A DNA stretch of 64,000 nt from an uncultured delta proteobacterium (GTDB lineage: Bacteria > Myxococcota_A > Polyangia > Polyangiales > Polyangiaceae), in NCBI GenBank assembly GCA_963716725.1, contig CAVQUB010000001.1:32001-96000 (forward strand), read 5' to 3'. This document shows positions 35,719 through 51,922 of the stretch, one piece after another; the stretch's first letter is position 1, and every line of letters starts with the position of its first letter. Below the pieces are notes generated by a model. It saw only the letters and a program-made list of their open reading frames with translations, was not told where the DNA came from and ran no database searches. Position numbers and translations under genes: made by a program.

Positions 35719-38159
35719 GGCTGCGCTGCCGGTCGGATCGCAGCCGAGATGAGCTGCGGGTCGTGGGCGCACGCCTCCACGGGCAGCACGAAAGGCCCGA
35801 TCCGGCACACGGCGCAGGCGGGGACTCCGCTGCCCACCACTTGCACGCGTCCGTCGGGGGAAACGGCGCAGAGCGCGTCGCCATTCTGCGTGACCGAGAG
35901 CTCGGCGATGAGCTGCCGTTCCCGGGTGCGCCAGACCCAGACGTGTCCCTTTGCCGTCGCGTAGACCAAGGAACCATCCGAGCTGAACGCGAGGTTGGTG
36001 GCGCCGGCCGGAGCGCCATCGAGCGCGCCGACTAGCCGCATCTCCAGCGAGTCCCACAGCGTGATCCGATCCCACTCCTCGGCCAGCGCGATGAATCTGC
36101 CGTCCAGGCTCGTGGACATGCCCGTCGGACCGTGTATTGCCGGTAGGCCGCGGAGATGCCGGGGCTGCGCCGCCGGGTCCGGAGACCAAATCAGGAACCC
36201 CGAACTCGCGCCGGGGAGCCTCGTAGCCACGATGTCCCCCGTGCGACTGAGGGCGCTCGAGCCGAAACTGAAGGTCGCGAAGCCGAGCGTGTGCTCTGTA
36301 CGCCCCGAACCTAGATCGACGATCTGCCAGCGCTTCCCTTCTCCGTCAGCGACCGAGAGGTAGGCGAGGCGTTTGCCGTCGGCGCTGACCGCGGGCAAGG
36401 TCAGGCCCGCGGTGGTCCAGCGCCGAATCTCGGCTCCCGTGGTGGCATTTCTCACCACCAGCTCGGCCTCGGGGGTCGCGTGCCCGCGCCTGGATCCGGC
36501 CTGGGAGATCACCTGCGTCCCGGACGCCCCGAAGGCGACGAAATCCACCGAGGCGGTGTGCTTTCCCAGCGTTCGGCGGCTCCCCGGCTCGGCGAGCGAA
36601 CCCGTGCGGAGGGATCCGTCTTCGAGCCCCACCACCCACCGCGAACCGTGCGTGTCGAGCGCAGTCACTCGTTCTCCCAGAGCCGCGAGGCGCCGGACTC
36701 GTGCGGCCTCCGGTTGCCACTCGATCAGCTCCCCGCTCGTGGTGCCGAAGAACATCGCGCGGCCTTGGTCCGAGACATCAACCACCGAAATCGAAGCGCT
36801 GAGGGCCGGGCGCCGAGTGGTCTTCCCCGCGCATTGCACCGCGCCGAAAGCGTCCATGTACCAGAGCGATCCGTCCCTTCCGAATTGCACGCTCTTGCCG
36901 CGCGCTGGCCGCGGGCCCACGGCTTTCGGCGAGGAATTGTCCAAATCCCAGAGCAAAACTCTCTCCGCAGCGATCGCGACCCGTTTGGCATCCGAGTCGA
37001 AGGAAAGTGCCGTCGCGGGATGGCCCAGTGAAAGCGAGTGCTTGGGCTGGCGCGAACGCGGCGCGGAGACCACCACGGCGGCCGTCTCGGAGAGCGCACG
37101 CGCCGCGAGGCTACAGTTCGAGGCGATGGCAAAAACGTCCGCGAGGTCCGTGGGAGCCGTCGTCGCATCGACGCGGTCGCCGGCCGGCCAGATCCGCGAG
37201 AATCCGTCGGTTTCCCAGACTCGCTCCCCGGACGCGAGGCAGCCGCTGCCTCGACTGAACTCGAGACCCGCTGCCTCGCCGGGGAGCTTCTGAAGCCGCC
37301 CGTCCGCCACGCTGATCACTGCCGCGAAATCTCGCTCTAGCGACGCGATGTGAGCACCGTCGTCGCTCCACACCAGCCCGGGATTCCAATCGTACTCGCT
37401 GGGATGGGCGAACGGGTTGGTTTGCCCCGGGGGAAGTCCGCTCGGGTACTGGCCCACGCTGCGCCCGCTCTCCACGTCCCACACGTAGAGCATCAGGTCG
37501 GCGGCCTTGGTCACGAGGCGACGCCCATCCGGCGAGAGCGCGGCGGCGATCCCGGGCACCGCGAGGTGCGGCGAGGAGGTCTGACGATCGAGGACGACCA
37601 CTTCCTCGAAGGCCTGCGCGGCGATTCGAGTCAGATCGGCGGACCACGAGAGCGTGGAGCTCCAGGGCCCGGGCGCCGAAGCCGCGCGGGCGCGCTTGCC
37701 GGTGTGCCGCTCGAGCTCGCCGAGCCCTCGCTTGATGAGCGCGTCGGCCTCCGCCGCGCGACCGAGCCTGCGCGCCACGACCCCAGCCCAGACGCGCGCG
37801 CGCGCGTCGTCAGGCCAGAGCGCCAGCGCCTCGCGGAACTCGCGCCGCGCCGGCTCGAGCGCGCCTTGGCCGAGATGTTCGAGCCCTGCCTCGTAGCGCG
37901 CCCGCGCCGCCTCGCGATTGGGCTCGCTGACCGACGCTGTTCGGGAGCCGCTCCGCGTGGGCGTGGAAGTGGGAGGCCAGTCCTTCGCGCAGGCCGAGGT
38001 TGCGGCGGCGAGGGCCATGAGGCAGCTCGCCCCGAGGGAGACTCGGACCCAGGAGCGCGGCACGCCCGACGGGCGCCGCGCGGAGCTCGCGCGAGCGGGA
38101 CGTCGCCCAGTCTTGCTGACGGCCAGGTTGGTCCTCTCCACTTCGCCCCGCCCTCGCAT
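35715..38159 (-). CDS. TPR plus WD40 repeat protein, possible lipoprotein
   Basis: TPR-like helix pair, then ALSPDG, VWD, AFSSDG repeats; start uncertain (38159 or 38018). Confidence 0.83.
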   Translation of the reverse strand: MRGRGEVERTNLAVSKTGRRPARASSARRPSGVPRSWVRVSLGASCLMALAAATSACAKDWPPTSTPTRSGSRTASVSEPNREAARARYEAGLEHLGQGALEPARREFREALALWPDDARARVWAGVVARRLGRAAEADALIKRGLGELERHTGKRARAASAPGPWSSTLSWSADLTRIAAQAFEEVVVLDRQTSSPHLAVPGIAAALSPDGRRLVTKAADLMLYVWDVESGRSVGQYPSGLPPGQTNPFAHPSEYDWNPGLVWSDDGAHIASLERDFAAVISVADGRLQKLPGEAAGLEFSRGSGCLASGERVWETDGFSRIWPAGDRVDATTAPTDLADVFAIASNCSLAARALSETAAVVVSAPRSRQPKHSLSLGHPATALSFDSDAKRVAIAAERVLLWDLDNSSPKAVGPRPARGKSVQFGRDGSLWYMDAFGAVQCAGKTTRRPALSASISVVDVSDQGRAMFFGTTSGELIEWQPEAARVRRLAALGERVTALDTHGSRWVVGLEDGSLRTGSLAEPGSRRTLGKHTASVDFVAFGASGTQVISQAGSRRGHATPEAELVVRNATTGAEIRRWTTAGLTLPAVSADGKRLAYLSVADGEGKRWQIVDLGSGRTEHTLGFATFSFGSSALSRTGDIVATRLPGASSGFLIWSPDPAAQPRHLRGLPAIHGPTGMSTSLDGRFIALAEEWDRITLWDSLEMRLVGALDGAPAGATNLAFSSDGSLVYATAKGHVWVWRTRERQLIAELSVTQNGDALCAVSPDGRVQVVGSGVPACAVCRIGPFVLPVEACAHDPQLISAAIRPAAQP

Positions 38160-38304
38160 CCTGCCCAGAACGGGGGTTCTGGGCAACCACCGATGGCCGT
38201 AGCTGACGAATCCCAAGTTCGCTCTCGTCGTGACCTGGGCTCGACCACGAGTCGCGGCGCCACCCTCGACCCGAACACCGCTGGGGCGAGCGCGTCGGAA
38301 AGAA

Positions 38305-39537
38305 ATGACCACAGCTCGAGTTCTTCTTCGGATCGCTTACAGACAGGACCTGGGTGCTACTCTGGCCTCCGTGGGGAAGACGCAGTTCGCACTACGGGCG
38401 CGATGGGTGACGCTTTTGGAAGCGCTGTACGCGCCGACGCCCGACGACCGTGAATGGGCCAGCGCGGTCGCGAACGCCGGCGACGCGATCTTCGGCGTGA
38501 CCGGGCGCTGCGGCGTCTGGCTGGTGTCGCATCCAGCGCCGTCGCAATCCGTTCAGATTCAGATCGCGGTCGGCACGGCCGCGGAACACGCGCTCATCTC
38601 CGGGAACCAGCACCTCGGCGTCGAGAACATCCGGCGCTTCTTGTATCCGGCGGGGCTGGTGACGACGCACCAAACGTTGGCGCGTGACATGAACGCCGAA
38701 GTGCGCGAGGCCCTCCGCATCGCGCACGAGAGCTTCGATTCCGTCGATGCGCTGGGGCTGCTGGTGCAGCCGAAGCCGGGTGCGGTGGCGGTCCTGTTCC
38801 ACCTCACTCGCCAGCCCATCGAGCTAACGCCCCAGCAGAAGCGCCTGTTGACCCAAGTGGCGCTGCACTTCGAAGTCGCTTGGCGTCTGCGGCTGAACCC
38901 GGACACCGTGCGCGGCGAGATCCTACCGGACGGACGGATCGCCGATCTGGCGGCAGGACAGGTCGACGCAGCGTCCCTCTCGACGCGGGTGCGCGCGATC
39001 GAGCGTGTTCGTACACGGCGTCACCGGAACGAACTCGACGCCATTGACCTGTGGACGGCGCTCGTGGACGGGCGCTTCAGTCTCGTCGAACGCTCCCAGG
39101 GCGGGCGCCGCCGCTACTGGGTCATCGAGAACCCGTCGGAACGTGTGCCGCTGCGGGCCCTGACGCCCGGCGAGGTCGAGGTGATCGCCCAGGCCGCGCG
39201 GGGACTTTCCGCCAAGCTCATCGCCTACTCGCTGGGGATCTCCGAGTCGGCCGTGTCGTCGCGACTGGCGGACGCGGCGAGCAAGGTTGGGACCGGGACC
39301 CGCACCGAGCTGGTGCGCATCGCTGCGCTCCTCGCCCGCGATCCTCGAGCCGGCTTCGCGCTGGAGCTGACGGACGCCGAGCGCAGCGTGCTTGACTTGG
39401 TGGTCCGGGGGTTGAGCAATCGGGAGATCGCGCATATTCGCAATCGCTCCGCGCGCACCATTGCAAATCAAGTCGCGTCGCTCTTGAGCAAAGCGCAAAG
39501 CCCGTCACGGCGTGCCTTGGCGACCCGACTCCTTTGA
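38305..39537 (+). CDS. Transcriptional regulator with two tandem LuxR-type HTH domains
   Basis: LTPGEVEVIAQAARGLSAKLIAYSLGIS and LTDAERSVLDLVVRGLSNREIA...RSARTIANQ; start uncertain. Confidence 0.85.
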   Translation: MTTARVLLRIAYRQDLGATLASVGKTQFALRARWVTLLEALYAPTPDDREWASAVANAGDAIFGVTGRCGVWLVSHPAPSQSVQIQIAVGTAAEHALISGNQHLGVENIRRFLYPAGLVTTHQTLARDMNAEVREALRIAHESFDSVDALGLLVQPKPGAVAVLFHLTRQPIELTPQQKRLLTQVALHFEVAWRLRLNPDTVRGEILPDGRIADLAAGQVDAASLSTRVRAIERVRTRRHRNELDAIDLWTALVDGRFSLVERSQGGRRRYWVIENPSERVPLRALTPGEVEVIAQAARGLSAKLIAYSLGISESAVSSRLADAASKVGTGTRTELVRIAALLARDPRAGFALELTDAERSVLDLVVRGLSNREIAHIRNRSARTIANQVASLLSKAQSPSRRALATRLL

Positions 39538-39710
39538 TCACCTCGCGCGGCTTCGGCGCGTCAAAACTGCGGGTTCCGAGCGATGAGCCGCGCCCCCGCC
39601 GCTTGCCGCAAGCCCCTCCGCTCCCGCCGCTTGCCGCTCTCGACCTCGAACCGCGACGCGCGTACCCTGAGACCGATGCTATCGCGTGTCGGAATGACAG
39701 CGGCGGGCTA

Positions 39711-40166
39711 ATGGCGTCGGTGGGCGACGAGTCGGAGCAAGGCCAACCTGGGGTCGGGCGGCTGTTCATTATCGGCGCTTTGGCCTGCATCGTCGCCGGC
39801 AGCGTGGGGCTGGGCTACGGGTGCCAGTACACCGGCGGCAAGCGGGCGGCGATTGACGACTACGCCGCCGCGCGCCGGGCTGGTCAGGACACAGCCGCGC
39901 CCCTGTTTGCCGACGACGACACTCGCGCGACCGACGCGTGGGTCGCCAAGAGCACGCGTCACAGCGTCTACAACTATCACTCGCGATTCGTCGGCGGTCA
40001 GTCCCGAGCCTGCTTCAGTACGGTGTTCTTCACGCCGGACGGGCTCCGGTGGATCGACGTTCTGCTGCTCGAAGTTCCGGACGGCTGGCGTGTGGCGTCG
40101 CTGAGTGAAGAGCGCGACTGCGAGTGCAAGCCCAAAACGAATCAGCCCTGCGCCATGGTGCCCTGA
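39711..40166 (+). CDS. Hypothetical single-TM protein
   Basis: One hydrophobic segment and a Cys-containing C-terminus. Confidence 0.55.
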   Translation: MASVGDESEQGQPGVGRLFIIGALACIVAGSVGLGYGCQYTGGKRAAIDDYAAARRAGQDTAAPLFADDDTRATDAWVAKSTRHSVYNYHSRFVGGQSRACFSTVFFTPDGLRWIDVLLLEVPDGWRVASLSEERDCECKPKTNQPCAMVP

Positions 40167-40347
40167 TGACGGACGTCCCGGCCCTGTCGCGTGCTGACTT
40201 CTCTACTGCCGTGCGCTGCTCGATGCGGCCTGCCTTCCCTCGACGAGCCGTGCGCATGACCATGATTCGGCCTGAATTGCGCCGCGACGCCCCGAGCACC
40301 CGAGAAACTAGCGCCCCTCCTGCGGCGTATACTCCAGACGAACTCCC

Positions 40348-40911
40348 ATGCGACCGCCGCGCAACAGCCTCGTCGGGCGTCCAGCGCTCCCGTTCGAGCT
40401 GCACGACTCGCACGGCAGCGTCCATCGTCTGTCCAACTACACCGGCAGGTGGCTCCTGCTGGTCTTCCATCGGCACCTGGCCTGACTTCCGTGCCGGGAG
40501 CATGTGGGGCAGTTGTTCCACGAGAAGCCGATGCTCGACAGCCTCGACATCGCGGTGCTGATCGTTTCGTTCGAGAGCCGCGCTTCGGTGGTTCGCTACG
40601 CATCAGATCCGGGGCTGCCGGGCGCGGTCGTGGCCGACACCCAGCGGGAACTCTTCGCTGGTTACGCCATGGGTCGAGCAAGCGTCTACGACGTCTGGGG
40701 CCCGAAGACGTGGTGGGCCTACGCGCGATCCCTGCTCGGAGGCGCGAAGCTTCGGAGCAGTACGGGTGACACCTCGCAGCGTGGCGGAAACGTGCTGATC
40801 GATCCCGAGGGCATCGTGCAAATGCACCACGTCGGACGAGGCCCGTCAGATCGACCGAGCGTGAGTGCGATTTCGGAGGTCGTACTCGCCGCCACCCAGA
40901 GGGGGCCATGA
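40348..40911 (+). CDS. Selenoprotein, peroxiredoxin-like/SelL-related redoxin (UxxC), 187 aa with UGA readthrough
   Basis: MRPPRNSLVGRPALPFELHDSHGSVHRLSNYTGRWLLLVFHRHLA-TGA(40483-40485)-LPCREHV continues in frame into ORF 40504-40911 (QRGGNVLIDPEG...DRP). Thioredoxin-fold sequence on both sides of the TGA. Confidence 0.88.
40490..40522 (+). promoter_or_regulatory. Candidate bacterial SECIS element
   Basis: GGAGCA (40497-40502) pairs with TGTTCC (40514-40519) around a G-rich apical loop, starting 11 nt after the UGA; CGT/ACG can extend the base. Confidence 0.6.
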
Positions 40912-42254
40912 AACCCCTCACGGTCTGCGTGTTTGCCAAACCTCCTCGAGCCGGCCGCGTGAAGACCCGCCTGATCGCCGGCGTCGGTGAGGGAGGCGCT
41001 GCGCAGCTTGCAGAAGCGTTTCTGCTGGACACGCTGGAGTCGCTGCGGAGGCTGCCCGACGTTCGCGTGATCGTCGCAACCACCGGTGACCTCGGTCTCG
41101 ATGTCGGTCCCGTCGAGGTCTGGGATCAAGGTGGTGGCACTCTCGGCCAGCGACTCGAGCGGGTCCTCGGGCGCGCAATCGGGGGCGGCACCCCAGCTTT
41201 GGCCATCGGCGCCGACACACCAGGGCTGCCGTTGGACCTCGTGACTCGGGCCGGGCTAGCGCTCGAGGCCCACCCGGCAGCCCTGGGCGCCTGCGATGAC
41301 GGCGGCTTTTGGGGCCTCGGGCTGACCTCGATTTCCGATGGGCTGCTCGCGGACATCGATTGGAGCACCGAACGGACCTGCGAACAGACGTGCGCTCGGT
41401 TGGTCGGCGCGGGGCTCGTGCCGCAGCTGCTTCCCGGATGGTTCGATCTGGACACGCCGGGTGATCTCGTGCGCCTCCGCCGGTTGCTCGACCGTCAGGT
41501 CGTGCAGGCGCCACGCACACGCGCCTTGCTCGACTCGTTGCTGCCTGCGCCCGCGATGAAAGTCTCGGTCGTGATCCCCGTCCTCGACGAAGAACGGCGG
41601 ATTGGAAGACTCCTGCGAGACCTGTCACGAACGGACGGGATTTCCGAGATCATCGTGGTGGACGGCGGCAGCCGCGATGGCACTCCCGACATCGTCCGCG
41701 CTTTTCCGGACGCACTGTTGCTGGACAGCACCCCGGGCCGGGGACCCCAACAGAATGCCGGCGCGCGCGTGGCCACCGGCGACGTTCTACTCTTCTTGCA
41801 TGCCGACACTCGCCTTCCGGAGGACGCGATGGCTCACATCCGTTCGGCGCTCGCCGATCCAAGGGTCGTGGCCGGCGCTTTTCGTACTTGGACGGTACGA
41901 GATGAGCCATTCGCCCGGGACGTTGCGCTTCCCGCGGCGCTGCTCCACTTGGCCGACCTGCGTTCGCGCTACACGAGCTTGCCCTACGGCGACCAAGGGA
42001 TCTTCGTGCGGCGCGAGGTGTTCGACCGTGTCGGAGGGTTTCCTCCGCAACCGCTCTTCGAAGATGTCGAGCTGTCACGCAGGCTGCGCCGCCAGGGCCG
42101 CATCGAAACGGTGCGCGCTTCGGTAGAGGTGTCAGGGAGGAGATTCTTCCGCCGCCCGGTCCGAGAGACCCTCCTGGTCAACTTGTTGCCGCTGGCTTAC
42201 CGGCTCGGCGTCTCGCCGACGCGGCTCTCCCGCGTATACCGGAACTTCCGCTGA
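40908..42254 (+). CDS. Fused TIGR04282 (DUF2064) plus TIGR04283 (GT2) arsenosugar-associated glycosyltransferase
   Basis: N-half FAKPPRAGRVKTRL, QGGGTLGQRL, IGADTP, DGGFW, DLDTPGDL. C-half VSVVIPVLDEE, VDGGSRD, GRGPQQNAGA, FLHADT, YGDQGIF, EDVEL, SGRRF. Confidence 0.88.
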   Translation: MKPLTVCVFAKPPRAGRVKTRLIAGVGEGGAAQLAEAFLLDTLESLRRLPDVRVIVATTGDLGLDVGPVEVWDQGGGTLGQRLERVLGRAIGGGTPALAIGADTPGLPLDLVTRAGLALEAHPAALGACDDGGFWGLGLTSISDGLLADIDWSTERTCEQTCARLVGAGLVPQLLPGWFDLDTPGDLVRLRRLLDRQVVQAPRTRALLDSLLPAPAMKVSVVIPVLDEERRIGRLLRDLSRTDGISEIIVVDGGSRDGTPDIVRAFPDALLLDSTPGRGPQQNAGARVATGDVLLFLHADTRLPEDAMAHIRSALADPRVVAGAFRTWTVRDEPFARDVALPAALLHLADLRSRYTSLPYGDQGIFVRREVFDRVGGFPPQPLFEDVELSRRLRRQGRIETVRASVEVSGRRFFRRPVRETLLVNLLPLAYRLGVSPTRLSRVYRNFR

Positions 42255-42261
42255 GGCATGA

Positions 42262-43263
42262 ATGACGATCGCCGAACGCCACCACTTGCCAGTTGCCTCG
42301 CATCGCTTTCCTACGATGCTGCGTGCGCACGGGCGGAAACTGCCGTCGCGCGATGTCGTGACCACCTTGCAGGTCAACGTGGGCAAACGTTGCAATCAAG
42401 CCTGCAGACATTGCCACGTGGACGCTGGTCCGAACCGAAGCGAGAGCATGTCGGCAGAGGTCGCGAATAGGGTGATCCAGCTGTTGGCGGCGAGCCCTAG
42501 CGTCGCCACTCTGGACATTACCGGCGGTGCGCCAGAGCTGAACCCGAGCTTTCGCACCTTGGTCATGAAGGCCCGTGCACGCGGCGTCGAGGTCATCGAC
42601 CGGTGCAACCTCACGGTGCTCTTCGAACCCGAGATGGAAGGGCTTGCAGGGTTCTTGGCGGAGCAAGGCGTGCACGTCGTGGCGAGCCTGCCTTGCTACA
42701 CCGAGGAGAATGTCGATCGGCAGCGCGGTCGCGGCACGTTCGAAAAGAGCGTGCACGCCCTTCGGTTACTCAACTCGCTCGGCTATGCCGCCCGCGATGA
42801 GCTCCGGCTCGACTTGGTCTACAACCCTCTCGGCCCGTCGCTACCGCCACCGCAGGCGCCGCTCGAGCAGGACTACCGCGAGCGCCTCGCCGCGGACTTC
42901 GGCGTCGCGTTTTCCCGACTGCTCACCTTGACGAACATGCCGATCCACCGATTCGCGAACGACCTGGCGCGAACGGGTCGACAAGACGCCTACTGGGCCT
43001 TGCTCGAAGAGAGCTTCAACGCCGCGACGCTGCCGGGGCTGATGTGCCGCTCACTGGTCAGCGTCGACTATCGCGGCCAGCTCTTCGACTGCGATTTCAA
43101 CCAGGTGGTCGGGCTGCGCGCGGGGTCGGGGTCGGACTCGCCCTCGACGATCTGGGAGATCGACTGCCTCGATCAGCTGACTGGCTCGTCGATCGCCGTC
43201 GCCGACCACTGCCTGGGGTGTACCGCCGGGGCGGGTTCGAGCTGTTCGGGTTCACTCGCCTGA
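42262..43263 (+). CDS. arsS: Arsenosugar-biosynthesis radical SAM protein (DUF3641-containing)
   Basis: LQVNVGKRCNQACRHCHVDAGP, DITGGAPELNP, IDRCNLT, ASLPCY, LMCR, DCDFNQ, HCLGCTAGAGSSC. Confidence 0.9.
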   Translation: MTIAERHHLPVASHRFPTMLRAHGRKLPSRDVVTTLQVNVGKRCNQACRHCHVDAGPNRSESMSAEVANRVIQLLAASPSVATLDITGGAPELNPSFRTLVMKARARGVEVIDRCNLTVLFEPEMEGLAGFLAEQGVHVVASLPCYTEENVDRQRGRGTFEKSVHALRLLNSLGYAARDELRLDLVYNPLGPSLPPPQAPLEQDYRERLAADFGVAFSRLLTLTNMPIHRFANDLARTGRQDAYWALLEESFNAATLPGLMCRSLVSVDYRGQLFDCDFNQVVGLRAGSGSDSPSTIWEIDCLDQLTGSSIAVADHCLGCTAGAGSSCSGSLA

Positions 43264-43304
43264 AGATTTCGACGCGCCCGCGACCGAAACTCCGAAGCGA
43301 GGCG

Positions 43305-43517
43305 TCAGCGCCGGCTGGCGCGCCACGCATAGAGCGCGCCGAGAGCCGCAGCCGCCATGATCAGCCATCCCGAGATGAAGATCGGCTCGGACCTGGCGCC
43401 GAGCACGCTGACCAGACCGACGAGCGAAGCGGCGAAGGCCGCGGCGTACCAGGCCCTCGGTGAGGCGGGCCGCGGTGGCGTGAGCCGAAGGCGGCGCCGA
43501 AACTCTCGGTCACTCAT
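43305..43517 (-). CDS. Small two-TM membrane protein (70 aa)
   Basis: MSDREFRRR... with two hydrophobic helices; GAGG RBS and ATGA overlap with the reductase. Confidence 0.65.
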   Translation of the reverse strand: MSDREFRRRLRLTPPRPASPRAWYAAAFAASLVGLVSVLGARSEPIFISGWLIMAAAALGALYAWRASRR

Positions 43518-45670
43518 TGAGACCTCGCGGCGCCTCGGCGCCAAGCGTGGAAGCGTTCCAACCACCCGAGCAGCCTTTCGGGGGCATGCGCCTTCTTCCA
43601 CGCCCCCGCGGCGTAGCGGTTTGCTTCGACGAGGGTCGGATAGATGTGGATCGTCCCGAGCAGTTTGTTCAGCCCGATGCGATGCCGCATCGCGAGCACG
43701 AATTCGGCGATGAGGTCGCCGGCGTGCTCGCCCACGATAGTGACGCCGAGGATGCGATCCTTGCCCGGCACGGTCAGCACCTTGACGAAGCCGTGGGCTT
43801 CTTCGTCAGCGATCGCTCGGTCCAAGTCGTCGATGTCGTAACGGGTCACTTCGTAGGCGATGGCCTTCTCCTGGGCCTCCTGTTCGCTCAGACCGACCCG
43901 CGCCACCTCGGGATCCACGAACGTGGCCCACGGAATGACGGAGTAGTCGGCGCGGAACTTCTTGAGAGGATCGAAGAGCGCGTTGACGGAGGCGTACCAA
44001 GCCTGGTGCGCGGCTGTGTGGGTGAACTGGAACGGGCCAGCGACGTCCCCAGCGGCATAGATGTTCGGGAAGCGCGTCTGGAGAAACTCGTTGACCTCGA
44101 CGGTGCGGGCCACCGGAACGCCCAGCTCCTCGAGACCGTAGCCCTTCACGTTTGCCGCTCGGCCCACGGCTACGAGCATTCGGTCGAACGGGATGCGCAC
44201 CTCGCGACCGGCGTGTTCGGCGACCAACTCGTTCTGTCCCTTCGCGACCTCGACACGCGTCGCGACGTGCTCGACCCGGACATCGATCCCCTCTTGCACG
44301 AAGCGGGCTCGGACGACCTCGGACACCTCGGGATCCTCCCGGGGCAACAGTCGCGGCAGCATCTCGACCTGCGTCACCCTCGACCCGAGGCGTGCGAAGG
44401 CTTGGGTCAGCTCCGAGCCGATGGGGCCTCCTCCGAGCACGACCAGGCGCGGGGGCAGCTCCCGGAGGTCCCACAGGTTGTCCGATGTCAGAACGTCGAT
44501 CTCGTCGAGGCCGGGGATCGGCGGAACGAACGGCCGCGCGCCGGCCGCGATCACGATGGAGCGTGTCGTGAGAGTGCGCTTGCCCGCGGGCAGTGTTACC
44601 TCGACGCTCCAGGGCGTCGTGATTTTGGCGCTGCCTTCGAGCACCTCGACCCCAAGCTCCGTGTACCGCTCGACCGAGTCGTGGGGCTCGATGGCTTTCA
44701 CGACGCGCTGGACGCGATCCATCACTTCACCGAAGTCGACCTCGGCGCTGGCGCTCTTGATGCCAAACTGCTTCGCGCGCGCGATGTGGGACAGGAACTT
44801 GGCGGATCGCAGCAGCGCCTTCGATGGCACGCAGCCCGTGTTCAGACAGTCTCCGCCCATCTTGTGCTTCTCGACGAGCGTGACTTTGGCTCTGAGAACC
44901 GCCGCGATGTACGCGGTCACCAGACCCGCACTCCCCGCGCCGATCACGACCATGTTGCGGTCGAAGCGCTTGGGCTTCTTCCATCCGGAATAGATCCGCC
45001 GCGCCGCGAGCCAGCTCGAGAGTTTCTTGGCGGCGAGGGGCAAGACGCCGAGCAACGCCAGGGAGCCCAACACGCCCGCCGACAGCACGTCTCCAATCGA
45101 CCCGAGCTCGGCCAGGCGCGTCCCCGCGTTCACGAAGACCACCGTGCCAGCGAGCATTCCGGCCTGGCTGACCCAAAAGAAGGTCCGGGTGCGGATCGAC
45201 GTGAGTCCCATCAGCAGGTTCACCACGAAGAAAGGAAACGCCGGCACCAGCCGGAGAGTGAACAAGTAGAACGCACCGTCTCGCTCGATGCCCCGATCGA
45301 CGGCCTCGAGTTGGTTCGCGAAGCGCTCCGCAACCCAGTCGCGGAGCACGAAGCGGGAGATCAAGAAAGCGAGCGTGGCCCCGATAGTCGACGCGATCGA
45401 CACGAGCAACGTACCCCACACGACACCGAACAGCGCTCCAGCACCGAGCGTCATGACCGCGGCCCCGGGGAGCGATAGCGCCGTCACGGCGATGTAGACG
45501 GCGACGAAGAGCGCGCCCGCCCGCACCGGGCTTGCGCTCGCAAGCTCCGCAAGACGAACGCGGTTCGCCTTCAAAACGTCGAAGTCGAGGCTGCGGCCCA
45601 GGTCGAACACGAAAAAGATCGCGACGGCGCAAACCAACGCCAGAGCGATCAGTACCCTCTTGGTGCTCAT
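43514..45670 (-). CDS. TVP38/DedA (VTT) domain fused to class I pyridine nucleotide-disulfide oxidoreductase (MerA/LPD-like)
   Basis: N-terminal SLPGAAVMTLGAGALFG...LRLVPAFPFFVVN; GAGSAG, GGDCLNTGCVPSK redox CxxxxC, GGGPIG, YAAGD, HIYPTLVE. Confidence 0.93.
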   Translation of the reverse strand: MSTKRVLIALALVCAVAIFFVFDLGRSLDFDVLKANRVRLAELASASPVRAGALFVAVYIAVTALSLPGAAVMTLGAGALFGVVWGTLLVSIASTIGATLAFLISRFVLRDWVAERFANQLEAVDRGIERDGAFYLFTLRLVPAFPFFVVNLLMGLTSIRTRTFFWVSQAGMLAGTVVFVNAGTRLAELGSIGDVLSAGVLGSLALLGVLPLAAKKLSSWLAARRIYSGWKKPKRFDRNMVVIGAGSAGLVTAYIAAVLRAKVTLVEKHKMGGDCLNTGCVPSKALLRSAKFLSHIARAKQFGIKSASAEVDFGEVMDRVQRVVKAIEPHDSVERYTELGVEVLEGSAKITTPWSVEVTLPAGKRTLTTRSIVIAAGARPFVPPIPGLDEIDVLTSDNLWDLRELPPRLVVLGGGPIGSELTQAFARLGSRVTQVEMLPRLLPREDPEVSEVVRARFVQEGIDVRVEHVATRVEVAKGQNELVAEHAGREVRIPFDRMLVAVGRAANVKGYGLEELGVPVARTVEVNEFLQTRFPNIYAAGDVAGPFQFTHTAAHQAWYASVNALFDPLKKFRADYSVIPWATFVDPEVARVGLSEQEAQEKAIAYEVTRYDIDDLDRAIADEEAHGFVKVLTVPGKDRILGVTIVGEHAGDLIAEFVLAMRHRIGLNKLLGTIHIYPTLVEANRYAAGAWKKAHAPERLLGWLERFHAWRRGAARSQ

Positions 45671-46316
45671 TCCTTCGACCCCACCGGACTCATACGGCTG
45701 AAACCGAGCGGCCGTTTCGCCTTTTCTGCACGGATGGACAAGCCGGGCGGGTTGGTGTTTGAGTGGCGATGCCCAGCATCAGCGCCACGGAAACCACCAG
45801 CACGACCAGCACCTGTTGCTGTTTGCCCTGTTGCTTCTTGCCCCGGCGCGTCGGGGCGGGGGCAGCTGCGCGTTGGCGCTCGCGGTTCTGGCGTTTCTGG
45901 GCTCCCTGGGACGCCAACGCGGGCGTGGCCGTTGTGATTGGCAATGGGCAGCTCTGGGTTCGGAAAGCGCCCCTCGGCGTCTGGGCCCGAACGGTCGGCT
46001 ACGCCATGCGCGTGCTTGAGAGCACGCGTCCAGCCGCGCGACTTGAACGCCTGGTCGACGCCGCACGCTACGCAAAGCACCGAGCCCCCGCAGCCCACCG
46101 AGCCGCCCGTGTGGCAGACGCGCCCACGCGTTCATGCGACCTCTCAGATGGGAGGTGCGGCTGGATCCTGCATCCCGCTAGGCTGGGGGAGGAGCCATTC
46201 CAACTTGGGGTCGGTCCCGACGGAGTGGAAACTCTACTTCACCCACCCCATCCACTTGGCCCCCGACCGAACCGCGGGGGGCGCGCCCCCAAAGGGGCTG
46301 AAAGCAGAGCTTCGTC

Positions 46317-47483
46317 ATGTACAAGGTCCTCACGGGATTGCTGACCCTGGCGCTCGCGCTCGGGCTAGTCGGCTGTGGCTCGGACTCGGAGGGCAACCCA
46401 GCAGCTGGCGGCGCGGCGGGAGCCGGCGGCACGGGTGGGAGCAGCGGAGCGCTGACGTTTGCCCTCACGCGCGTCGAACTCAACCAGTCCGTTCCCAAGC
46501 CGCTGTTCGACAAGGGGCAGCCGGTGACCAGTACGGTGCCGGCGTTGGCGGACCGGCCCGGCCTGCTGCGGATCTTCTACGACGCCCAAGGCGACGTCAG
46601 CCAGAAGCTCGAGATCACGGTAGCCATCGGCAGCCAGACGGTGACTCAGATGAGGCAGGCCAAAGCGGGCAACTCCCTCGCGGCGGATCTAACCACGACG
46701 CTGAACGTCGATCTGCTTGGCGTCCACCTGCCGGCTGGCGAGCAGCCCTTTTCGGTGGACGTGAAGATCGCGGGCAGCGACGCCACGCTGGCGCGCTTCC
46801 CGGCCACCGGAACTACGCCACTGAAACTCGAAAAGACCGGAACCATGGATCTGGTGCTGCTGTTGTTTCAGTACGACGCAGACGGCTCGGGTCGCACCCC
46901 GAACCTGGACGCCGCCGCCAGGATGAAAATTGGGGCGGCCCAGCAGGCGCTGTTTCCGGTCGCAGCCGTCAACGTCTCGGTGGCGGGGCCGATTCCGTGG
47001 GCCCAAACCGTGAGTGCAACCGGTCAGGGCTGGTCCGGGCTGATGACGGAAGTACAGCAGGCCCGCAGCGCCGCGGCGGTTCCGGACAACACCTTCTACC
47101 TGGGGCTGGTCCAACCCGCGGCGGACCACGAAGCGTGGTGCGCAAACGGCTGCATCCGGTCAATGGCCTCGCAGCCCAAGAACTTCGACCCGGGTTCTCA
47201 ATTCGGAGTCGGCGTCTACGCTCCGGGCGCCGACGTGAACTACTCGTGGGTCCTGGGCAGCGCCCACGGACGCATGACTGCGGGCTGCGCATCGGGCTCC
47301 GCCGACCCCGCCTTTCCTCACAAGAACGGCCAAATTGGCGGTTACGGCTACGACTCCGTCGGCCAGGTGCTTTACCCGTCGACCACCTCCGACTTCATGA
47401 CCGAGTGTGCGACGCCACACTGGGTCAGTGACTACACCTTCACCGCGCTCTACGATCGGTGGCGCTTGATTCTGGGGAGCTAG
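46317..47483 (+). CDS. Lipoprotein resembling M66-like metalloproteases but lacking the zinc motif
   Basis: LVGC lipobox; C-terminal DPAFPH...IGGYGYD...DFM..C...WVSDYTF typical of this family, with WVLGSAHGRMT where HExxHxxGxxH is expected. Confidence 0.7.
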   Translation: MYKVLTGLLTLALALGLVGCGSDSEGNPAAGGAAGAGGTGGSSGALTFALTRVELNQSVPKPLFDKGQPVTSTVPALADRPGLLRIFYDAQGDVSQKLEITVAIGSQTVTQMRQAKAGNSLAADLTTTLNVDLLGVHLPAGEQPFSVDVKIAGSDATLARFPATGTTPLKLEKTGTMDLVLLLFQYDADGSGRTPNLDAAARMKIGAAQQALFPVAAVNVSVAGPIPWAQTVSATGQGWSGLMTEVQQARSAAAVPDNTFYLGLVQPAADHEAWCANGCIRSMASQPKNFDPGSQFGVGVYAPGADVNYSWVLGSAHGRMTAGCASGSADPAFPHKNGQIGGYGYDSVGQVLYPSTTSDFMTECATPHWVSDYTFTALYDRWRLILGS

Positions 47484-47668
47484 CATGGGCCGCCAGGCCC
47501 GCCCCGAGAAACGCTCGGGCGCTCTGGCCCCGTCCGCTACGGTCAGCTTTTTGACGAGCCCAATGCGACCAGAGCCGTTCGCGCGAAAACACGGCGAGAG
47601 GGAAGCCAGCGGCAACGTGACCCATCAGCGACGCCGGGATGCGGGTCGCGAAGAATCGTGCGTGGGGA

Positions 47669-48413
47669 TCAGCCCAGCGTTTTCTTGAAGTCCGCAGGCG
47701 TCATGGCCTCGAGCGGCAGCGCAAAGATGTCGCGGTGGGTACCGAGGTGCTCGAGGGCCCTGGCGAGATACGCCCGCGCGGGGACGCGCTGCGCGCGGCA
47801 GGTGGCGATGAAGCCGAGGAGCACGCAGGCGCGGTGGGCCCCTTCGGTGCTACCGGCGAAGAGCGTGTCGAGGCGGAGCTTGGCGACGTTCTGGAACTCG
47901 CGCTCGGTGGGAGAGTTGTCGATGGGGACCAGGGGGTCGTCGACGAAACGGAAGGGCGCGTCCCGGTGGTTCTTGTAGTACCGAATTGCCGCCCCCAGCG
48001 GGTCGGAGGGCAAGAGCGTCGGTTCCACCGCGTCGCGCCAGCTCTCGAAGTCCTGGATAGTGGGGCGAAGATGCCGCTGCCGCTGTTCGCGGAGCGCATC
48101 GCCGACGAGGCCGAGCTTCTGCGCCTTCTCCTCCTCGCCGTAGATCGCCCCGAGCACGCGGCTCGAGGTGAAGACGTCGTTGAAGCGATGCTCGGCGTCG
48201 GCAGTGAGGGTGCCGCGGAAGGCCTGAGCTTCGCGGCGACGACGTCGCCGCTTTTGTCGGGCTCGTACTGGAAGACGGCGACGTCGTTGTTTCGATAGAG
48301 CTCCACGTAGCCGTTGTGCGCGGCGCCGGACGGCGACGGCGAGGGCGTCGAACGAACCGCGCATGTCGAGCGGGGCCACCGCCACGAACACGCGCCGGAT
48401 GCAGGCTCAGCAC
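47669..48413 (-). pseudogene. IS66 TnpB N-terminus joined to frameshifted TnpC fragments
   Basis: VFVAVAPLDMRGSFDAL (TnpB) followed by TnpC motifs PLGAAIRYY, PIDNSPTEREF, LFAGSTEGA. Confidence 0.85.
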
Positions 48414-48766
48414 GAGCGCACAGCCTCGAGCACCCGGCGCAGCGCCGCGACTGAGACCTCGTCACCGAACTCGATGCGCGCTCCGGCGACCTCGACGACG
48501 TACCGGCCCGCGGTGGACCCGCCGACGCCGCGCGCAGCGGGAACGAGCTCGACCAGCCCGCGCGCTGTCGGGGTGGCCCGCGGCGTTCGCCGTCGCGGAC
48601 CAGCGGGCGACCCTCGCCGTCCGAGGTTGGTCTGCCACGCGCGGAGCGAGCGCCCGTCGATGTCGTGCGCCCGGGCCCACTCTCCGGCGCTCAGGCCCCG
48701 ACGCTTCGCCGCGAGAAGGCACCGCCGCGCCTCCGCCTCGTCCTCGATCTTTCGTCCGTTTGCCAC
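48407..48766 (-). CDS. IS66 accessory protein, TnpA-like
   Basis: HTH-like GLSAGEWARAHDIDGRSLRAW, LVELV, and C-terminal RIEF...LRRVLEAVRSC overlapping tnpB. Confidence 0.75.
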   Translation of the reverse strand: MANGRKIEDEAEARRCLLAAKRRGLSAGEWARAHDIDGRSLRAWQTNLGRRGSPAGPRRRTPRATPTARGLVELVPAARGVGGSTAGRYVVEVAGARIEFGDEVSVAALRRVLEAVRSC

Positions 48767-48954
48767 TGATGACCTCCGCTCCGCAGCCGCGCCTCGCGGC
48801 CGAGGCGACGGAAGTCATCCCGGCGTCGCTGATGGGTCACTCAGCGACGCGCACTCCGATCGCACGAGCCCGGTGCGTGTCCCGAGCGGGCTGCACCCGG
48901 GGAGCGATCCCTTGACGGCTCCCGCGCTGCCGACGATCGCCGAGTCATACCCAC

Positions 48955-49773
48955 CTACCGGCTCGGCAGTTCGCGTGGCTTGCGACCCAGCAACGAGGCG
49001 AGCGTCGGCGGGCTGTCAACCATGATGGCGTGAGCGCGCCCGTCCAAGGCTCGTACGAATTCTTCGAGCGTAACGACCTGATAAACGGCCAACTGCCTGC
49101 TGAGGCCAACCACGATGTCACCAACCCAGGGCTCAACCGTGCGGATGGGCATGAGCACCCAAGGCATTTCGTGACGACTCGCGTTGCTGATGCTCTCCGT
49201 CGAAGAATCGTCCCATCCGCCGATGATGCCGTCGACCTGCCGCGTCGCAATTCGACGTAGCGCCGTGTCGCTGTAGCTGATGATGACAATCTTGTCGGCA
49301 AACCCTGACGCGAGCACCGCGTCGACGGCATCGTCCACCTGCGCCACGATCTCGTCTTCCGGGGGAGTGGAGTCCTCGGGCACTTTGATTTCCAGGAAAA
49401 CGATCTTGAAGAGCCCGTCGATCGACCCGAGCATCTCGCCCAGCGTCACGACGCTTTCGCCGTTGCTCAGTGAGCATGAACGGATCTCTTCGAGCGTATA
49501 GTCCTGCACGCGACCGGCACAGTTGGTCATTCGGTCCACAGTTTCGTCATGCATGACTACATTGCGACCGTCCCGCGTCTGCTGAACGTCGAACTCAATG
49601 CCGTCTGCACCCTGTTCATACGCCAACTCGAAACCTGCCAGTGAGTTCTCGGGTGCCTGCAGCGGACTGCCGCGATGTCCGATGAGTAGAACATCGTCGT
49701 AGAACTCTGGGCCGCAGCCGATGGCCAGCATTGCGAAGACCGCGGTGAGTCCGAAGCGGAAGCGTCCTGTCAT
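48955..49773 (-). CDS. Glycerophosphodiester phosphodiesterase, lipoprotein
   Basis: LAIGC lipobox; IGHRG, PENSL, GIEFDV, VMHD, LEIK. Confidence 0.9.
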   Translation of the reverse strand: MTGRFRFGLTAVFAMLAIGCGPEFYDDVLLIGHRGSPLQAPENSLAGFELAYEQGADGIEFDVQQTRDGRNVVMHDETVDRMTNCAGRVQDYTLEEIRSCSLSNGESVVTLGEMLGSIDGLFKIVFLEIKVPEDSTPPEDEIVAQVDDAVDAVLASGFADKIVIISYSDTALRRIATRQVDGIIGGWDDSSTESISNASRHEMPWVLMPIRTVEPWVGDIVVGLSRQLAVYQVVTLEEFVRALDGRAHAIMVDSPPTLASLLGRKPRELPSR

Positions 49774-50438
49774 GGAAGGTATACCCCCAGGTGAAATCCT
49801 CCCTGGACGGTCAGCGGCACGCCGGGTCGCAGGACATGGCTCTCTGTCTTCTCCTGCAAGGTCTGCCGGAAGATCCAGTTGCCCGTCATTTCAGCTCCGA
49901 GCACGTAGCGATCCAACACTCGAGCCTCAAACCCAAGCCCTGTCACGAGCTGGTGGCTGAAAAGATGAATGCCCTGCGGCAATGCGGCGACGGCGAGAGC
50001 ATACCCGGCGGTCGCGTAGGGCGTCAGCGCCGCTCGAGGGAAGATGGGGACCGATAGCGCGCCGGCCATCGAATGCTGTGTTCTGTAACCGTAGGTCACG
50101 GTTGCTCGGAGGTACTCCCACGGAACCAGGGTCAGGCTCGGTCCGAGACCATCGCGATGAACCGAGCCGACGTGCAACCCCACGCGAAATGGGCCTGGCC
50201 CGTCGTCGTAGGCTGTCGCGAATGGGTTTTCGAACTTCCATGCTTCCCGGGGACCGGGTCGTGCCCCACCTGATGCTGGCGTCGACGCAGTCGCTGCAGA
50301 CGACCCCTCGGGACGATCATTGCCTGCCGCTAGCGACGGACGTAGCTCCAGCGTGGAGCTGGCGATGACGACCGCGCCGGCCAAAAGCGCCATCGGGCGC
50401 CTGCGCGTTTCGCGCGTGCAACTAGAGCGCGCCTTCAT
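49770..50438 (-). CDS. Secreted protein, possible small outer-membrane beta-barrel
   Basis: Signal-like N-terminus, amphipathic beta-strand patterns (LTPYATAGYA, TGLGFEA), C-terminal GFHLGVYLP; start uncertain. Confidence 0.55.
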   Translation of the reverse strand: MKARSSCTRETRRRPMALLAGAVVIASSTLELRPSLAAGNDRPEGSSAATASTPASGGARPGPREAWKFENPFATAYDDGPGPFRVGLHVGSVHRDGLGPSLTLVPWEYLRATVTYGYRTQHSMAGALSVPIFPRAALTPYATAGYALAVAALPQGIHLFSHQLVTGLGFEARVLDRYVLGAEMTGNWIFRQTLQEKTESHVLRPGVPLTVQGGFHLGVYLP

Positions 50439-50456
50439 GTCTTCCATACGTGGGCT

Positions 50457-51149
50457 CTAGCCCAGGTGGTCGTCCTTTGCGCTCAAGGCGCGTCGGGCAG
50501 CGGACAGAGCTGCAATCACGCCGATTGCGTTCATGACTCCGAGGATGCCGACACCTGCAAGCAGCAAAGCGTGGGGCACCACCGGGCTGAAGTCCACAGT
50601 TCCGAGTGCCAAACAACACAGCAGCAGGATGGTGCGCTCAGGACGCCGCATGAACAGTGCCGGCAGCTGAGTGCCCAGCGCCTCGGCGCGGGCGCGCACG
50701 TAGCTCACGCCGAAACCGAATACGAGCGCGCCAACGGGAATCAATGCCAAGCGATCGTACACGAGATAGAGCGATGCGACGCCGATCAGCGGAAAGGCGT
50801 CCGCGAAGCGATCGACGGTGGAGTCGAGCAGTGCGCCCCAGCGCGACGAGGTGCCCGTTGCCCGCGCCACGACGCCGTCAAGGGCGTCGAACACGCCGCC
50901 GACCAAGACCAGGGTGGTGGCGCCCCACAGGTGTCCCGTGGCTACGGCGACGCCTGCCGCGGCGGACAGCGCCAGCGCCAGGATGGTGAGCGCGTTGGCG
51001 CTGATGCCCGCGCGCGCGAGAGCGCGCCCCAAAGCGCTGATCAGAGAGTAGCCGACGTGCGCCAGCTGCACGTCTTGCCACACCGTGCCGCGCAACCGCT
51101 GCGCGGTTGGATCGTTCGGCAGGATGTCAGAGTCTGTTAGAATTTGCAT
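50457..51149 (-). CDS. CDP-alcohol phosphatidyltransferase (PgsA/PIS-like)
   Basis: DALDGVVARATG-SSRWGALLDSTVDR signature; SYVRARAE; RPER. Confidence 0.92.
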   Translation of the reverse strand: MQILTDSDILPNDPTAQRLRGTVWQDVQLAHVGYSLISALGRALARAGISANALTILALALSAAAGVAVATGHLWGATTLVLVGGVFDALDGVVARATGTSSRWGALLDSTVDRFADAFPLIGVASLYLVYDRLALIPVGALVFGFGVSYVRARAEALGTQLPALFMRRPERTILLLCCLALGTVDFSPVVPHALLLAGVGILGVMNAIGVIAALSAARRALSAKDDHLG

Positions 51150-51174
51150 ATTCGATCCGGGTTGCCGTCGAACC

Positions 51175-51190
51175 TGCACATGCCGTTCCA
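51175..51190 (-). promoter_or_regulatory. Sigma-54 (-24/-12)-like promoter for the CDP-alcohol transferase operon
   Basis: TGGAACGGCATGTGCA (GG-N10-GC) just upstream of ATG 51149. Confidence 0.6.
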
Positions 51191-51277
51191 CAGAACCCCT
51201 TGAGCTTCTCTGACCCCGCGGAGCTTCGGGGCCAAGCCGACCGATGCGTAAGCTTTCATGCCACGTGGCGGTTTCAC

Positions 51278-51311
51278 TGCGGATTGCGCACTACGCGCTG
51301 CGAGATCCGCA
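51278..51311 (+). promoter_or_regulatory. Tandem palindromic enhancer-like sites
   Basis: TGCGGATTGCGCA (51278) and TGCGAGATCCGCA (51299): TGCG-N5-CGCA, 21 bp apart. Confidence 0.65.
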
Positions 51312-51385
51312 GTACCTGGCTGCGAGCAGAGGGAGAAGGACCTACGTGGCTGCGCCCGGCGTTCTCCCTGTGCGCAGATAGCCAC

Positions 51386-51401
51386 CGGCATGGAGCGTGC
51401 A
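51386..51401 (+). promoter_or_regulatory. Sigma-54-like promoter for the CBS gene
   Basis: CGGCATGGAGCGTGCA (GG-N10-GC), upstream of AGGAG and ATG 51435. Confidence 0.6.
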
Positions 51402-51434
51402 TTGACACCTCCTGAAAAGCACAGGAGTCAAGAG

Positions 51435-51908
51435 ATGAAACACGCCAAAACCGCCGCAGACTTGATGACGCGCAACGTGGTCGTGGTCTATCCGGAGGAC
51501 AGCCTAAATCAGATCGCCGAAGGCATGGCCCTCTTCGGGTTGCGGCAGATCCCAGTTGTCGATGATGGCGTGCTGGTTGGCGTGGTGGATGAAAGGAGTG
51601 TGATTGGGATGAGGTCGTCGCCAAAGGAAACGCTTCTTTCGAATCTCCTGCGCGGGCTGCGAGCCGAGCGGAGCTTCGTCGCGGAGGTCATGGCTGCCCC
51701 CGCGAGCACCGTGACCACCAGCGCATCGATGAAGGAAGTCATGGAAACCTTCGAGCGCATCGGCGGCAACTCACTGCCGGTTGTGGACGATGTCGGACGC
51801 CTGGTGGGCTTGATCATGCCGGAGCAAGTGGCCCGCTTCGCAGGAAGTCTGATCAAGGAAGCTCCACCCTCCCGGCGCGGCCCCGCCCTTATCCTGCGGG
51901 CAGCGTGA
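51435..51908 (+). CDS. CBS domain pair protein
   Basis: ADLMTRNVVVV...IPVVDDGVLVGVV and VAEVM...LPVVDDVGRLVGLI. Confidence 0.9.
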   Translation: MKHAKTAADLMTRNVVVVYPEDSLNQIAEGMALFGLRQIPVVDDGVLVGVVDERSVIGMRSSPKETLLSNLLRGLRAERSFVAEVMAAPASTVTTSASMKEVMETFERIGGNSLPVVDDVGRLVGLIMPEQVARFAGSLIKEAPPSRRGPALILRAA

Positions 51909-51922
51909 GCACGTGAGTTCGG

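Follow-up and report, generated by a model that had tools for sequence, protein, structure and literature searches.

An arsenosugar-type ArsS gene cluster with a proposed thiol/selenol reducing module of its own in an uncultured Polyangiaceae bacterium

The stretch of DNA analysed here, called the window below, comprises 64,000 nucleotides of contig CAVQUB010000001.1 (positions 32,001 to 96,000 of the forward strand) from an uncultured delta proteobacterium of the family Polyangiaceae (assembly GCA_963716725.1). It carries a gene cluster around ArsS, which is an enzyme of the radical S-adenosylmethionine (SAM) class, and this is a genuine arsenosugar-type (ArsS) cluster that, in our reading, carries a thiol/selenol reducing module of its own. 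In the window, the extra genes are a selenocysteine (Sec)-containing redoxin at the head of the ArsS operon and a convergent gene for a DedA-anchored flavoprotein disulfide reductase. They appear to be the local form of a reducing module found in many ArsS clusters. Its occurrence there is the more general result, and the module apparently has not been studied before. The reading we prefer, to which we give somewhat less than an even chance, is that NAD(P)H, the reductase and the Sec-redoxin jointly make or keep dimethylarsenic trivalent for ArsS.

Trivalent dimethylarsenic, DMAs(III), oxidises fast in air, and its keeping or regeneration in the cell is not accounted for by known genes. We know of no gene to which a reductase activity for pentavalent methylated arsenicals has been assigned. 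The clusters described here supply a concrete candidate set, namely a DedA protein with a flavoprotein reductase of the HxYPT type, and interchangeable small proteins with a CxxC or UxxC motif.

Comparison data

The source genome (labelled G000, with the contig as C1) is 84% complete with 3.9% contamination, and the GC content of the window is about 68%. The comparison covered 301 genomes of the phylum and 120 sampled ArsS loci, 40 from the phylum and 80 from a cross-phylum set (Pseudomonadota, Planctomycetota, Verrucomicrobiota, Binatia, Cyanobacteria and others). Counts out of 122 include in addition the window and locus L158, which was added post hoc. Locus counts come from single-query tblastn searches with the window proteins and from a home-made redoxin profile, and they are to be read with the relatedness of the sampled genomes in mind.

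Organization of the cluster

On the forward strand, the order of the operon is Sec-redoxin, fused TIGR04282/TIGR04283 transferase and ArsS, and the DedA/VTT::flavin disulfide reductase converges on it from the reverse strand. The stop codon of the redoxin gene and the start codon of the transferase gene overlap as ATGA, and 7 bases separate the transferase stop from the ArsS start. A further 41 bases lie between the ArsS stop and a 70-amino-acid open reading frame (ORF) on the opposite strand, which is followed by the reductase fusion. An original prediction, made from the letters of the window, had given these gene positions, their coupling and the in-frame Sec codon, and all of them are borne out by translation, family scores and overlaps. 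The features are as follows.

40348..40911, + strand: SelL-related thioredoxin-fold selenoprotein, 187 amino acids (NF040769, PF00578, PF13911), TGA at 40483-40485
40505..40520, + strand: hairpin resembling a selenocysteine insertion sequence (SECIS), 6-bp stem and AGUU loop, from the consensus fold of 12 homologous sites
40908..42254, + strand: fused TIGR04282 (DUF2064, nucleotidyl-transferase-like) and TIGR04283 (GT2) arsenosugar biosynthesis glycosyltransferase, 448 amino acids, from family scores
42262..43263, + strand: ArsS, radical SAM enzyme, Cys form (TIGR04167 at 420.4 bits, cut-off 300; PF04055; DUF3641, PF12345)
43305..43517, - strand: possible two-helix membrane ORF of 70 amino acids, doubtful gene, in ATGA overlap with the reductase stop
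43514-45670, - strand: reductase fusion, 718 amino acids (VTT/DedA, Pyr_redox_2, Pyr_redox_dim)
44981..45670, - strand: DedA/VTT membrane domain, residues 1-230 (PF09335 at residues 71-184, 79.9 bits, gathering threshold 33.9)
43514..44980, - strand: class-I flavoprotein disulfide reductase domain, residues 231-718, with the redox disulfide in GGDCLNTGCVPSK and the motif IHIYPT

Between 39900 and 46300, the promoter scan returned 0 promoters, and the terminator scan returned 5 terminator-like sites where 3.6 are expected, none of them between the convergent genes.

The Sec codon of the redoxin

Translation of the first gene gives a single in-frame TGA, at codon 46, in the motif HRHLA-U-LPC. 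On NF040769, the model for SelL-related redox proteins (cut-off 120), the product reaches 162.8 bits, and it also matches AhpC-TSA (PF00578) and AhpC-TSA_2 (PF13911). It is probably cytoplasmic, no signal peptide being evident, and its relatives of solved structure are weak ResA matches only (E 0.005).

This TGA is very likely read as Sec, because aligned TGA codons in homologues, a conserved hairpin and the Sec machinery of the genome all point the same way at the sequence level. An in-frame TGA is aligned at the same place of the RH[LF]xUxxC motif in 12 other loci, and most of the best NF040769 matches of the phylum survey (above cut-off in 42 of 301 genomes) contain one TGA. The hairpin begins 22 nt past the first base of the UGA and is conserved, with compensatory changes on both sides in three of its six stem pairs; folding of the window as a single sequence gave no significant SECIS by itself (z 0.28). 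The genome contains selA (467 bits), selB (280.7 bits, cut-off 242) and a tRNA-Sec gene (70.3, cut-off 47) that adjoins selB, all three above their cut-offs.

Two other forms of the redoxin were noticed in the survey. In a genome of the same order, G285, the redoxin (L023:14451-14524, - strand) has two in-frame TGA codons in the motif U-L-A-U and is possibly a UxxU double selenoprotein. Fusions of the Sec-redoxin to a short-chain dehydrogenase, about 510-555 amino acids long with the TGA read through, lie at L056:4216-5727, L057:6015-7499, L063:6047-7549, L064:6004-7503 and L066:7066-8565; regulators of the MerR/B12-binding kind adjoin two of these fusions and a glutathione peroxidase adjoins one.

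ArsS, the transferases and arsM

ArsS of the window has the cluster motif CNQACRHC and a C-terminal motif HCxGCTAGAGSSC, and its C-terminus reads ...HCLGCTAGAGSSCSGSLA. This C-terminal motif is invariant in alignment A1 (14 ArsS proteins), as are C44, C48, C51, C317, C320 and C328. TIGR04167 is above its cut-off in 129 of the 301 phylum genomes, and all 129 of them are free of in-frame stops. The GSSC ending, which the original prediction had singled out as distinguishing, is thus the family norm.

The proteins of A1 (loci L010-L049) form two groups. Those with LPCY and TNMPIxRFA occur together with the reductase, the transferases and arsM. Those with LPHY and NMPIsRYLEWL are preceded almost always by an AhpD-like TIGR04169 gene alone.

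The transferase fusion scores 218.4 on TIGR04283 (cut-off 182) and 134.3 on TIGR04282 (cut-off 134), the latter being borderline. By tblastn, both transferase domains adjoin ArsS in 6 of the 40 phylum loci, and the TIGR04283-type and TIGR04282-type halves occur in 19 and 17 of the 80 cross-phylum loci.

As predicted, no match to the ArsM family lies in the window. Two ArsM-family genes above the NF008823 cut-off are present elsewhere in the genome, at C15:23342-24115 (351.4 bits) and C32:128462-129247 (297.9 bits), and both proteins carry the conserved arsenic-binding cysteines. A TGA flagged inside the second match suggested a Sec-containing ArsM; it is merely the stop codon of the gene, and this candidate was rejected. 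Generally, arsM is the commonest neighbour of ArsS (36 of 122 loci), and it lies within about 9 kb in 9 of the 40 phylum loci and 27 of the 80 cross-phylum loci, so that most ArsS loci are without an adjacent arsM. Given this and the two genes elsewhere in the genome, the idea that the cluster is a system variant without arsM does not hold.

The DedA::reductase fusion

The reductase domain has a Tyr before Pro in IHIYPTLVE, at the place of the catalytic His of LpdA and glutathione reductase (GR), and this Tyr aligns with a Tyr of MerA. Its best relatives of solved structure, about equal, are MerA 5x1y (E 1.3e-74) and LpdA 2eq6. It stays under both curated cut-offs (TIGR02053, 389.1 against 454.45; TIGR01350, 391.7 against 408.8). 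The C-terminal tail is rich in Trp and Arg, ends in ...HAWRRGAARSQ and has no Cys pair. MerA is defined by a C-terminal Cys pair and the metal-binding domain NmerA, and the His-Glu catalytic dyad of LpdA and GR has the motif HPT..E. Measured against these family motifs as commonly described, the reductase is by its sequence not a true MerA and not an LpdA either.

The same features recur among 30 aligned reductases, 28 of them from ArsS loci and two (L159, L160) from outside ArsS clusters. GGDCLxxGC is present in 30 of 30 and HxYPT in 27 of 30 (Ala for His in the other 3), and a C-terminal Cys pair in 0 of 30. Their C-termini are Trp/Arg-rich and free of cysteines, like that of the window protein.

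The 70-amino-acid ORF next to the reductase gene was considered as a conserved cluster component and rejected, homologues being absent even at E 10. It matches no family in Pfam or NCBIfam and has no homologue in the 122 ArsS loci nor beside the closest reductase homologues, and its GC at second codon positions (0.66; 0.82 at third positions) is atypical; for these reasons its reality as a gene is doubtful.

Recurrence of the reductase and of small CxxC/UxxC proteins at ArsS

The convergent DedA::reductase, put forward earlier as a partner of the cluster, proves to be recurrent. DedA followed by the reductase stands directly beside ArsS in 10 of the 40 phylum loci, and a reductase match above 150 bits lies near ArsS in 22 of the 80 cross-phylum loci (32 of 120 in all). 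At any score, 24 of the 80 cross-phylum loci have a reductase match and 14 have both reductase and DedA matches. The two are mostly adjoining or overlapping genes, and they are fused in the window, L019, L036, L075, L158 and L159. At E <= 1e-85, protein searching gave reductase homologues in 94 of the 301 genomes. ArsS is present in 63 of these 94 and in 70 of the 207 reductase-negative genomes, a tally made by hand from genome lists in which kin are not independent. In 38 of the 129 ArsS-positive genomes a homologue lies within about 3 kb of ArsS, by coordinates compared by hand, and this count is a lower bound owing to fragmented assemblies. The second closest homologue (67% identity, G104, locus L158) belongs to a compact row of DedA::reductase, PrdB-like selenoprotein, two transferases and ArsS.

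A dithiol or selenol-thiol protein working with the cluster had also been proposed, and the small CxxC/UxxC proteins that recur beside ArsS fit this proposal. A small redox gene is found at the cluster in 26 of 120 loci, the reductase in 32 and both in 7. The commonest type is TIGR04169 (AhpD-like, arsenosugar biosynthesis-associated peroxidase-like protein), which lies beside ArsS in 17 of 120 loci (tblastn); among the 17 are 12 of the 14 phylum loci with an ArsS at only 44-51% identity to the window protein. The window cluster has no TIGR04169 gene, and the best match in its own genome, on contig C5, reaches 82.6 against a cut-off of 120, in an assembly that is 84% complete. A redoxin-family profile run on six-frame translations of the 120 ArsS loci gave 10 matches, and for 8 of these the distance to ArsS or to the reductase is at most about 1 kb. 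These 8 are AhpC/TSA-type proteins with WCPxC, some with a hydrophobic N-terminus; most stand directly beside ArsS, one adjoins the reductase and one is about 0.8 kb from ArsS. A second UxxC selenoprotein, unrelated to the redoxin, is found inside same-phylum ArsS clusters at L158:5175-5933 (+) and L042:4895-5671 (-). It is PrdB/GrdB-like, has an in-frame TGA in VPV-U-P[MF]-C-HQ and reaches 134 bits on the PrdB model TIGR04483 (cut-off 300).

Other recurrent neighbours of ArsS are PHO4 transporters (11 of 122 loci), methylthioadenosine (MTA)-phosphorylase-like proteins (9 of 122) and proteins of the fatty-acid-hydroxylase family (8 of 122), all of them compatible with arsenosugar chemistry. 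The Pfam and NCBIfam scans of unlabelled neighbours, in which TIGR04169 and the PrdB-like protein came up, also returned a DUF1223 protein.

Outside ArsS clusters, 4 of 48 metagenome loci have an HxYPT reductase at a distance of 1-3 kb from a SelL-related redoxin, in two arrangements and once with DedA. Another arrangement was seen at L160:4309-9850 (G025, no ArsS match), where three genes stand in a row: one for a DsbD-like membrane protein that contains a thioredoxin domain, one for an N-terminally extended AhpC/TSA redoxin, and one for a DedA::HxYPT reductase fusion. This row hints at a wider role, in membrane thiol redox, of DedA paired with the reductase.

A possible route of electrons to ArsS

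According to the accessible text of PMC13598754, ArsS adenosylates DMAs(III) in a redox-neutral reaction; therefore a dedicated reductant would be needed for the trivalent substrate and not for turnover. The accessible part of bioRxiv 10.1101/2022.09.23.509062 has ArsS using methylarsenite species from ArsM. Judged by its family membership, ArsS of this organism would adenosylate DMAs(III) as well.

The relay from reductase to redoxin to arsenical goes beyond the membership of the genes in one cluster, and we infer its steps as follows. The cytoplasmic flavoprotein domain would be held at the membrane by the DedA domain, and electrons would pass from NAD(P)H over FAD to the CxxxxC disulfide of the reductase, which would then reduce the Sec-redoxin or act directly on the substrate. 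The selenol-thiol pair may convert pentavalent dimethylarsenic to DMAs(III), or release it from an adduct with sulfur or selenium. The arsenical could come from the ArsM enzymes encoded elsewhere in the genome or from uptake, and DMAs(III) would be the sole form adenosylated by ArsS. The product, 5'-deoxy-5'-dimethylarsinoyl-adenosine, would be passed to the fused transferases. On this route, the SelL-related selenoprotein would act here in place of the TIGR04169 proteins, AhpC/TSA redoxins or PrdB-like selenoproteins of other clusters.

A broader proposal is that a DedA-anchored HxYPT flavoprotein and a small UxxC/CxxC protein form a bacterial reductase system for pentavalent methylated arsenicals that feeds DMAs(III) to ArsS. 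We offer it tentatively and regard it as rather unlikely. The recurrence of unrelated selenoproteins in ArsS clusters would then reflect an advantage of the selenol in attacking As(V). If the candidate set of reductase and small proteins is confirmed, the microbial arsenic cycle would gain a reductive branch, and the gathering of selenoproteins around ArsS clusters would be explained. The present comparison also suggests a function for the commonest DedA fusion, which the accessible text of a published survey leaves unexplained (PMC10127716). Even if the module is not confirmed, the rare operon placement of a Sec-redoxin is documented.

Weighing the alternatives

Several findings weigh against the idea that the reductase and the Sec-redoxin supply ArsS with trivalent substrate. 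Neither a reductase nor a small redox gene is nearby in 69 of 120 loci, and 31 reductase-positive genomes are without ArsS. The closest reductase homologue (70% identity, G300) stands away from ArsS, and the window reductase is convergent with the operon and not co-transcribed with it. The cluster may have been acquired recently, as two same-genus genomes of the phylum survey have neither ArsS nor the reductase. Conservation of the redoxin near arsS was one of the points on which the original prediction had staked itself, and in the strict sense it is lacking. In the set of 129 ArsS-positive genomes, only G285 otherwise has a redoxin within 4 kb of ArsS (at 3.6 kb), a single case that could be due to chance, about 0.2 being expected on a rough estimate; in G014 a weak redoxin match (60 bits) directly follows ArsS. 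Among 20 loci centred on the best redoxin family members, none has ArsS, a transferase, DedA or the reductase within 7 kb, and none of 48 metagenome loci with the closest redoxin relatives has a true ArsS alongside. The neighbourhoods of the family are heterogeneous, 5 of the 20 loci being the short-chain dehydrogenase fusions, and the closest relatives are just 47-51% identical (at most 51% over the full length in metagenomes). The findings on the redoxin fit the view that it is a general antioxidant or thiol-disulfide protein that came to head the operon by chance, with the ArsS pathway independent of it. Against this stand the ATGA overlap with the transferase gene, the reductase near the redoxin in 4 of the 48 metagenome loci, the unrelated CxxC/UxxC proteins at equivalent places in other ArsS clusters, and the closeness of 8 of 10 redoxin-profile matches to ArsS or the reductase in loci that extend up to about 19 kb. 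We consider a chance placement unlikely.

A redox module could also serve ArsS itself: the redoxin, or elsewhere the AhpD-like protein, would keep the C-terminal CxxC...GSSC of ArsS reduced or deliver an arsenic adduct with selenium or sulfur, and the reductase would recycle the redoxin. The most conserved pairing indeed has no nearby reductase and consists of ArsS and a small CxxC protein encoded directly upstream of it, as for TIGR04169 in the 12 of 14 loci above, and the C-terminal Cys motif of ArsS is invariant. NCBIfam names TIGR04167 a "(seleno)protein", and a table in the accessible part of a review gives it as a GxxU selenoprotein (PMC13188914). However, the accessible text of PMC13598754 reports that ArsS reacts in vitro in the absence of partners of this kind, a disulfide in ArsS is hypothetical, and this role is hard to tell from substrate reduction by sequence alone; we see in it a minor, though real, possibility. 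It is quite improbable, in our judgement, that the fusion works in a membrane or lipid step, with DedA as the flippase or scramblase of a lipid-linked intermediate, or of an arsenolipid to which the GT2 transferase contributes, and with a flavoprotein role unrelated to arsenic valence. What is accessible of PMC10127716 describes DedA proteins as flippases of lipids or undecaprenyl phosphate and gives PF07992/PF02852 as the commonest fusion of one DedA subfamily, with function unknown. Fatty-acid-hydroxylase-family genes occur at ArsS, as counted above, and L160 couples DedA::reductase with a DsbD-like membrane protein. Such a role leaves an NAD(P)H disulfide reductase without a task, though, and the reductase also stands beside ArsS where no DedA is detected (24 against 14 of the 80 cross-phylum loci); bacteria of this group have no known lipid product. 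Little credence goes, lastly, to a cluster that is not for arsenic here, in which the ArsS-family enzyme would adenosylate another soft nucleophile, such as a selenium or sulfur compound, prepared by the selenoprotein and the reductase. The place of arsM outside the cluster, the recurrence of selenoproteins in ArsS clusters and the restriction of characterised ArsS to cyanobacteria, as far as the accessible sources go, would agree with it. But TIGR04167 is an equivalog model, on which the protein reaches 420 bits, arsM is the commonest neighbour of ArsS, and the genome has its two ArsM-family genes; PHO4-type transporters fit arsenate uptake, and MTA-phosphorylase-like proteins fit the removal of adenine from an adenosyl-arsenical.

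Genes flanking the cluster

The genes on both sides of the cluster are as follows.

35715-38312, - strand: WD40-repeat protein, 865 amino acids, upstream of the cluster
38230-39537, + strand: 435-amino-acid protein with two LuxR/GerE helix-turn-helix stretches, upstream of the cluster
39534-40166: 210-amino-acid ORF, no family, 180 bases before the redoxin gene
47613-48859, - strand: IS66-family transposase fragment (PF03050, C-terminal part only; ORFs 47669-48391 and 48407-48766), about 2 kb from the reductase gene
48955-49773, - strand: glycerophosphodiester phosphodiesterase (PF03009), 3.3 kb from the cluster

The glycerophosphodiester phosphodiesterase, a 388-amino-acid lipoprotein, the 210-amino-acid ORF and the LuxR protein were tried as cluster members and rejected. 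The first of them is near ArsS in 1 of 121 other loci and is probably unrelated to the cluster, and the others are found in no other ArsS locus. The IS66 stretch recurs, at 81-89% identity, in the same-genus genome G275 (at least 7 copies) and in G125. In a DNA search of positions 33000-52000 of the window against two same-genus genomes, a multi-copy element resembling an insertion sequence was the sole match.

Comparison with known systems

ArsS, both transferases and the associated small CxxC protein are already known, and all of them are named in NCBIfam. In our literature search, no paper combining "arsenosugar" with "DedA" was found, nor one describing ArsS clusters that contain a reductase or DedA, a point on which the supplements of the primary ArsS papers may bear.

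With the cyanobacterial arsM-arsS pathway as named in NCBIfam, the window shares ArsS, the two transferase domains and the general theme of a small protein of dithiol type next to ArsS. In contrast to that pathway, its cluster is without arsM (two copies are on other contigs) and without TIGR04169, and has a thioredoxin-fold UxxC selenoprotein at the operon head, fused transferases and a DedA::flavoprotein reductase. In Synechocystis, arsM is adjacent to and co-transcribed with arsS, according to the accessible text of bioRxiv 10.1101/2022.09.23.509062, whereas the window cluster has no such arsM.

The redoxin agrees with the SelL-related/Prx-like selenoproteins (NF040769, PF00578) in its score above the cut-off, the UxxC at the family position and the SECIS-like hairpin. 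The accessible part of a selenoproteome review lists the UxxC Prx-like family among predicted selenoproteins, and TIGR04167 as well (PMC13188914). Members elsewhere are scattered or fused to short-chain dehydrogenases, while placement in an ArsS operon is rare (the window and, loosely, G285).

The reductase shares the fold and the CxxxxC disulfide of MerA and LpdA, and has a Tyr at the position of the MerA active-site Tyr. It differs from MerA by the absence of the C-terminal Cys pair and the N-terminal metal-binding domain, in place of which it has an N-terminal DedA domain and a conserved Trp/Arg-rich tail, and from LpdA and GR by Tyr for the catalytic His. Its domain architecture is that of DedA fused to PF07992/PF02852, the commonest fusion of the COG0398 subfamily in the accessible text of PMC10127716, the likeness being one of architecture. 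That text gives neither a function for the fusion nor a link to ArsS, whereas gene neighbourhood ties the pair of the window type, whether one fused gene or two, to ArsS clusters.

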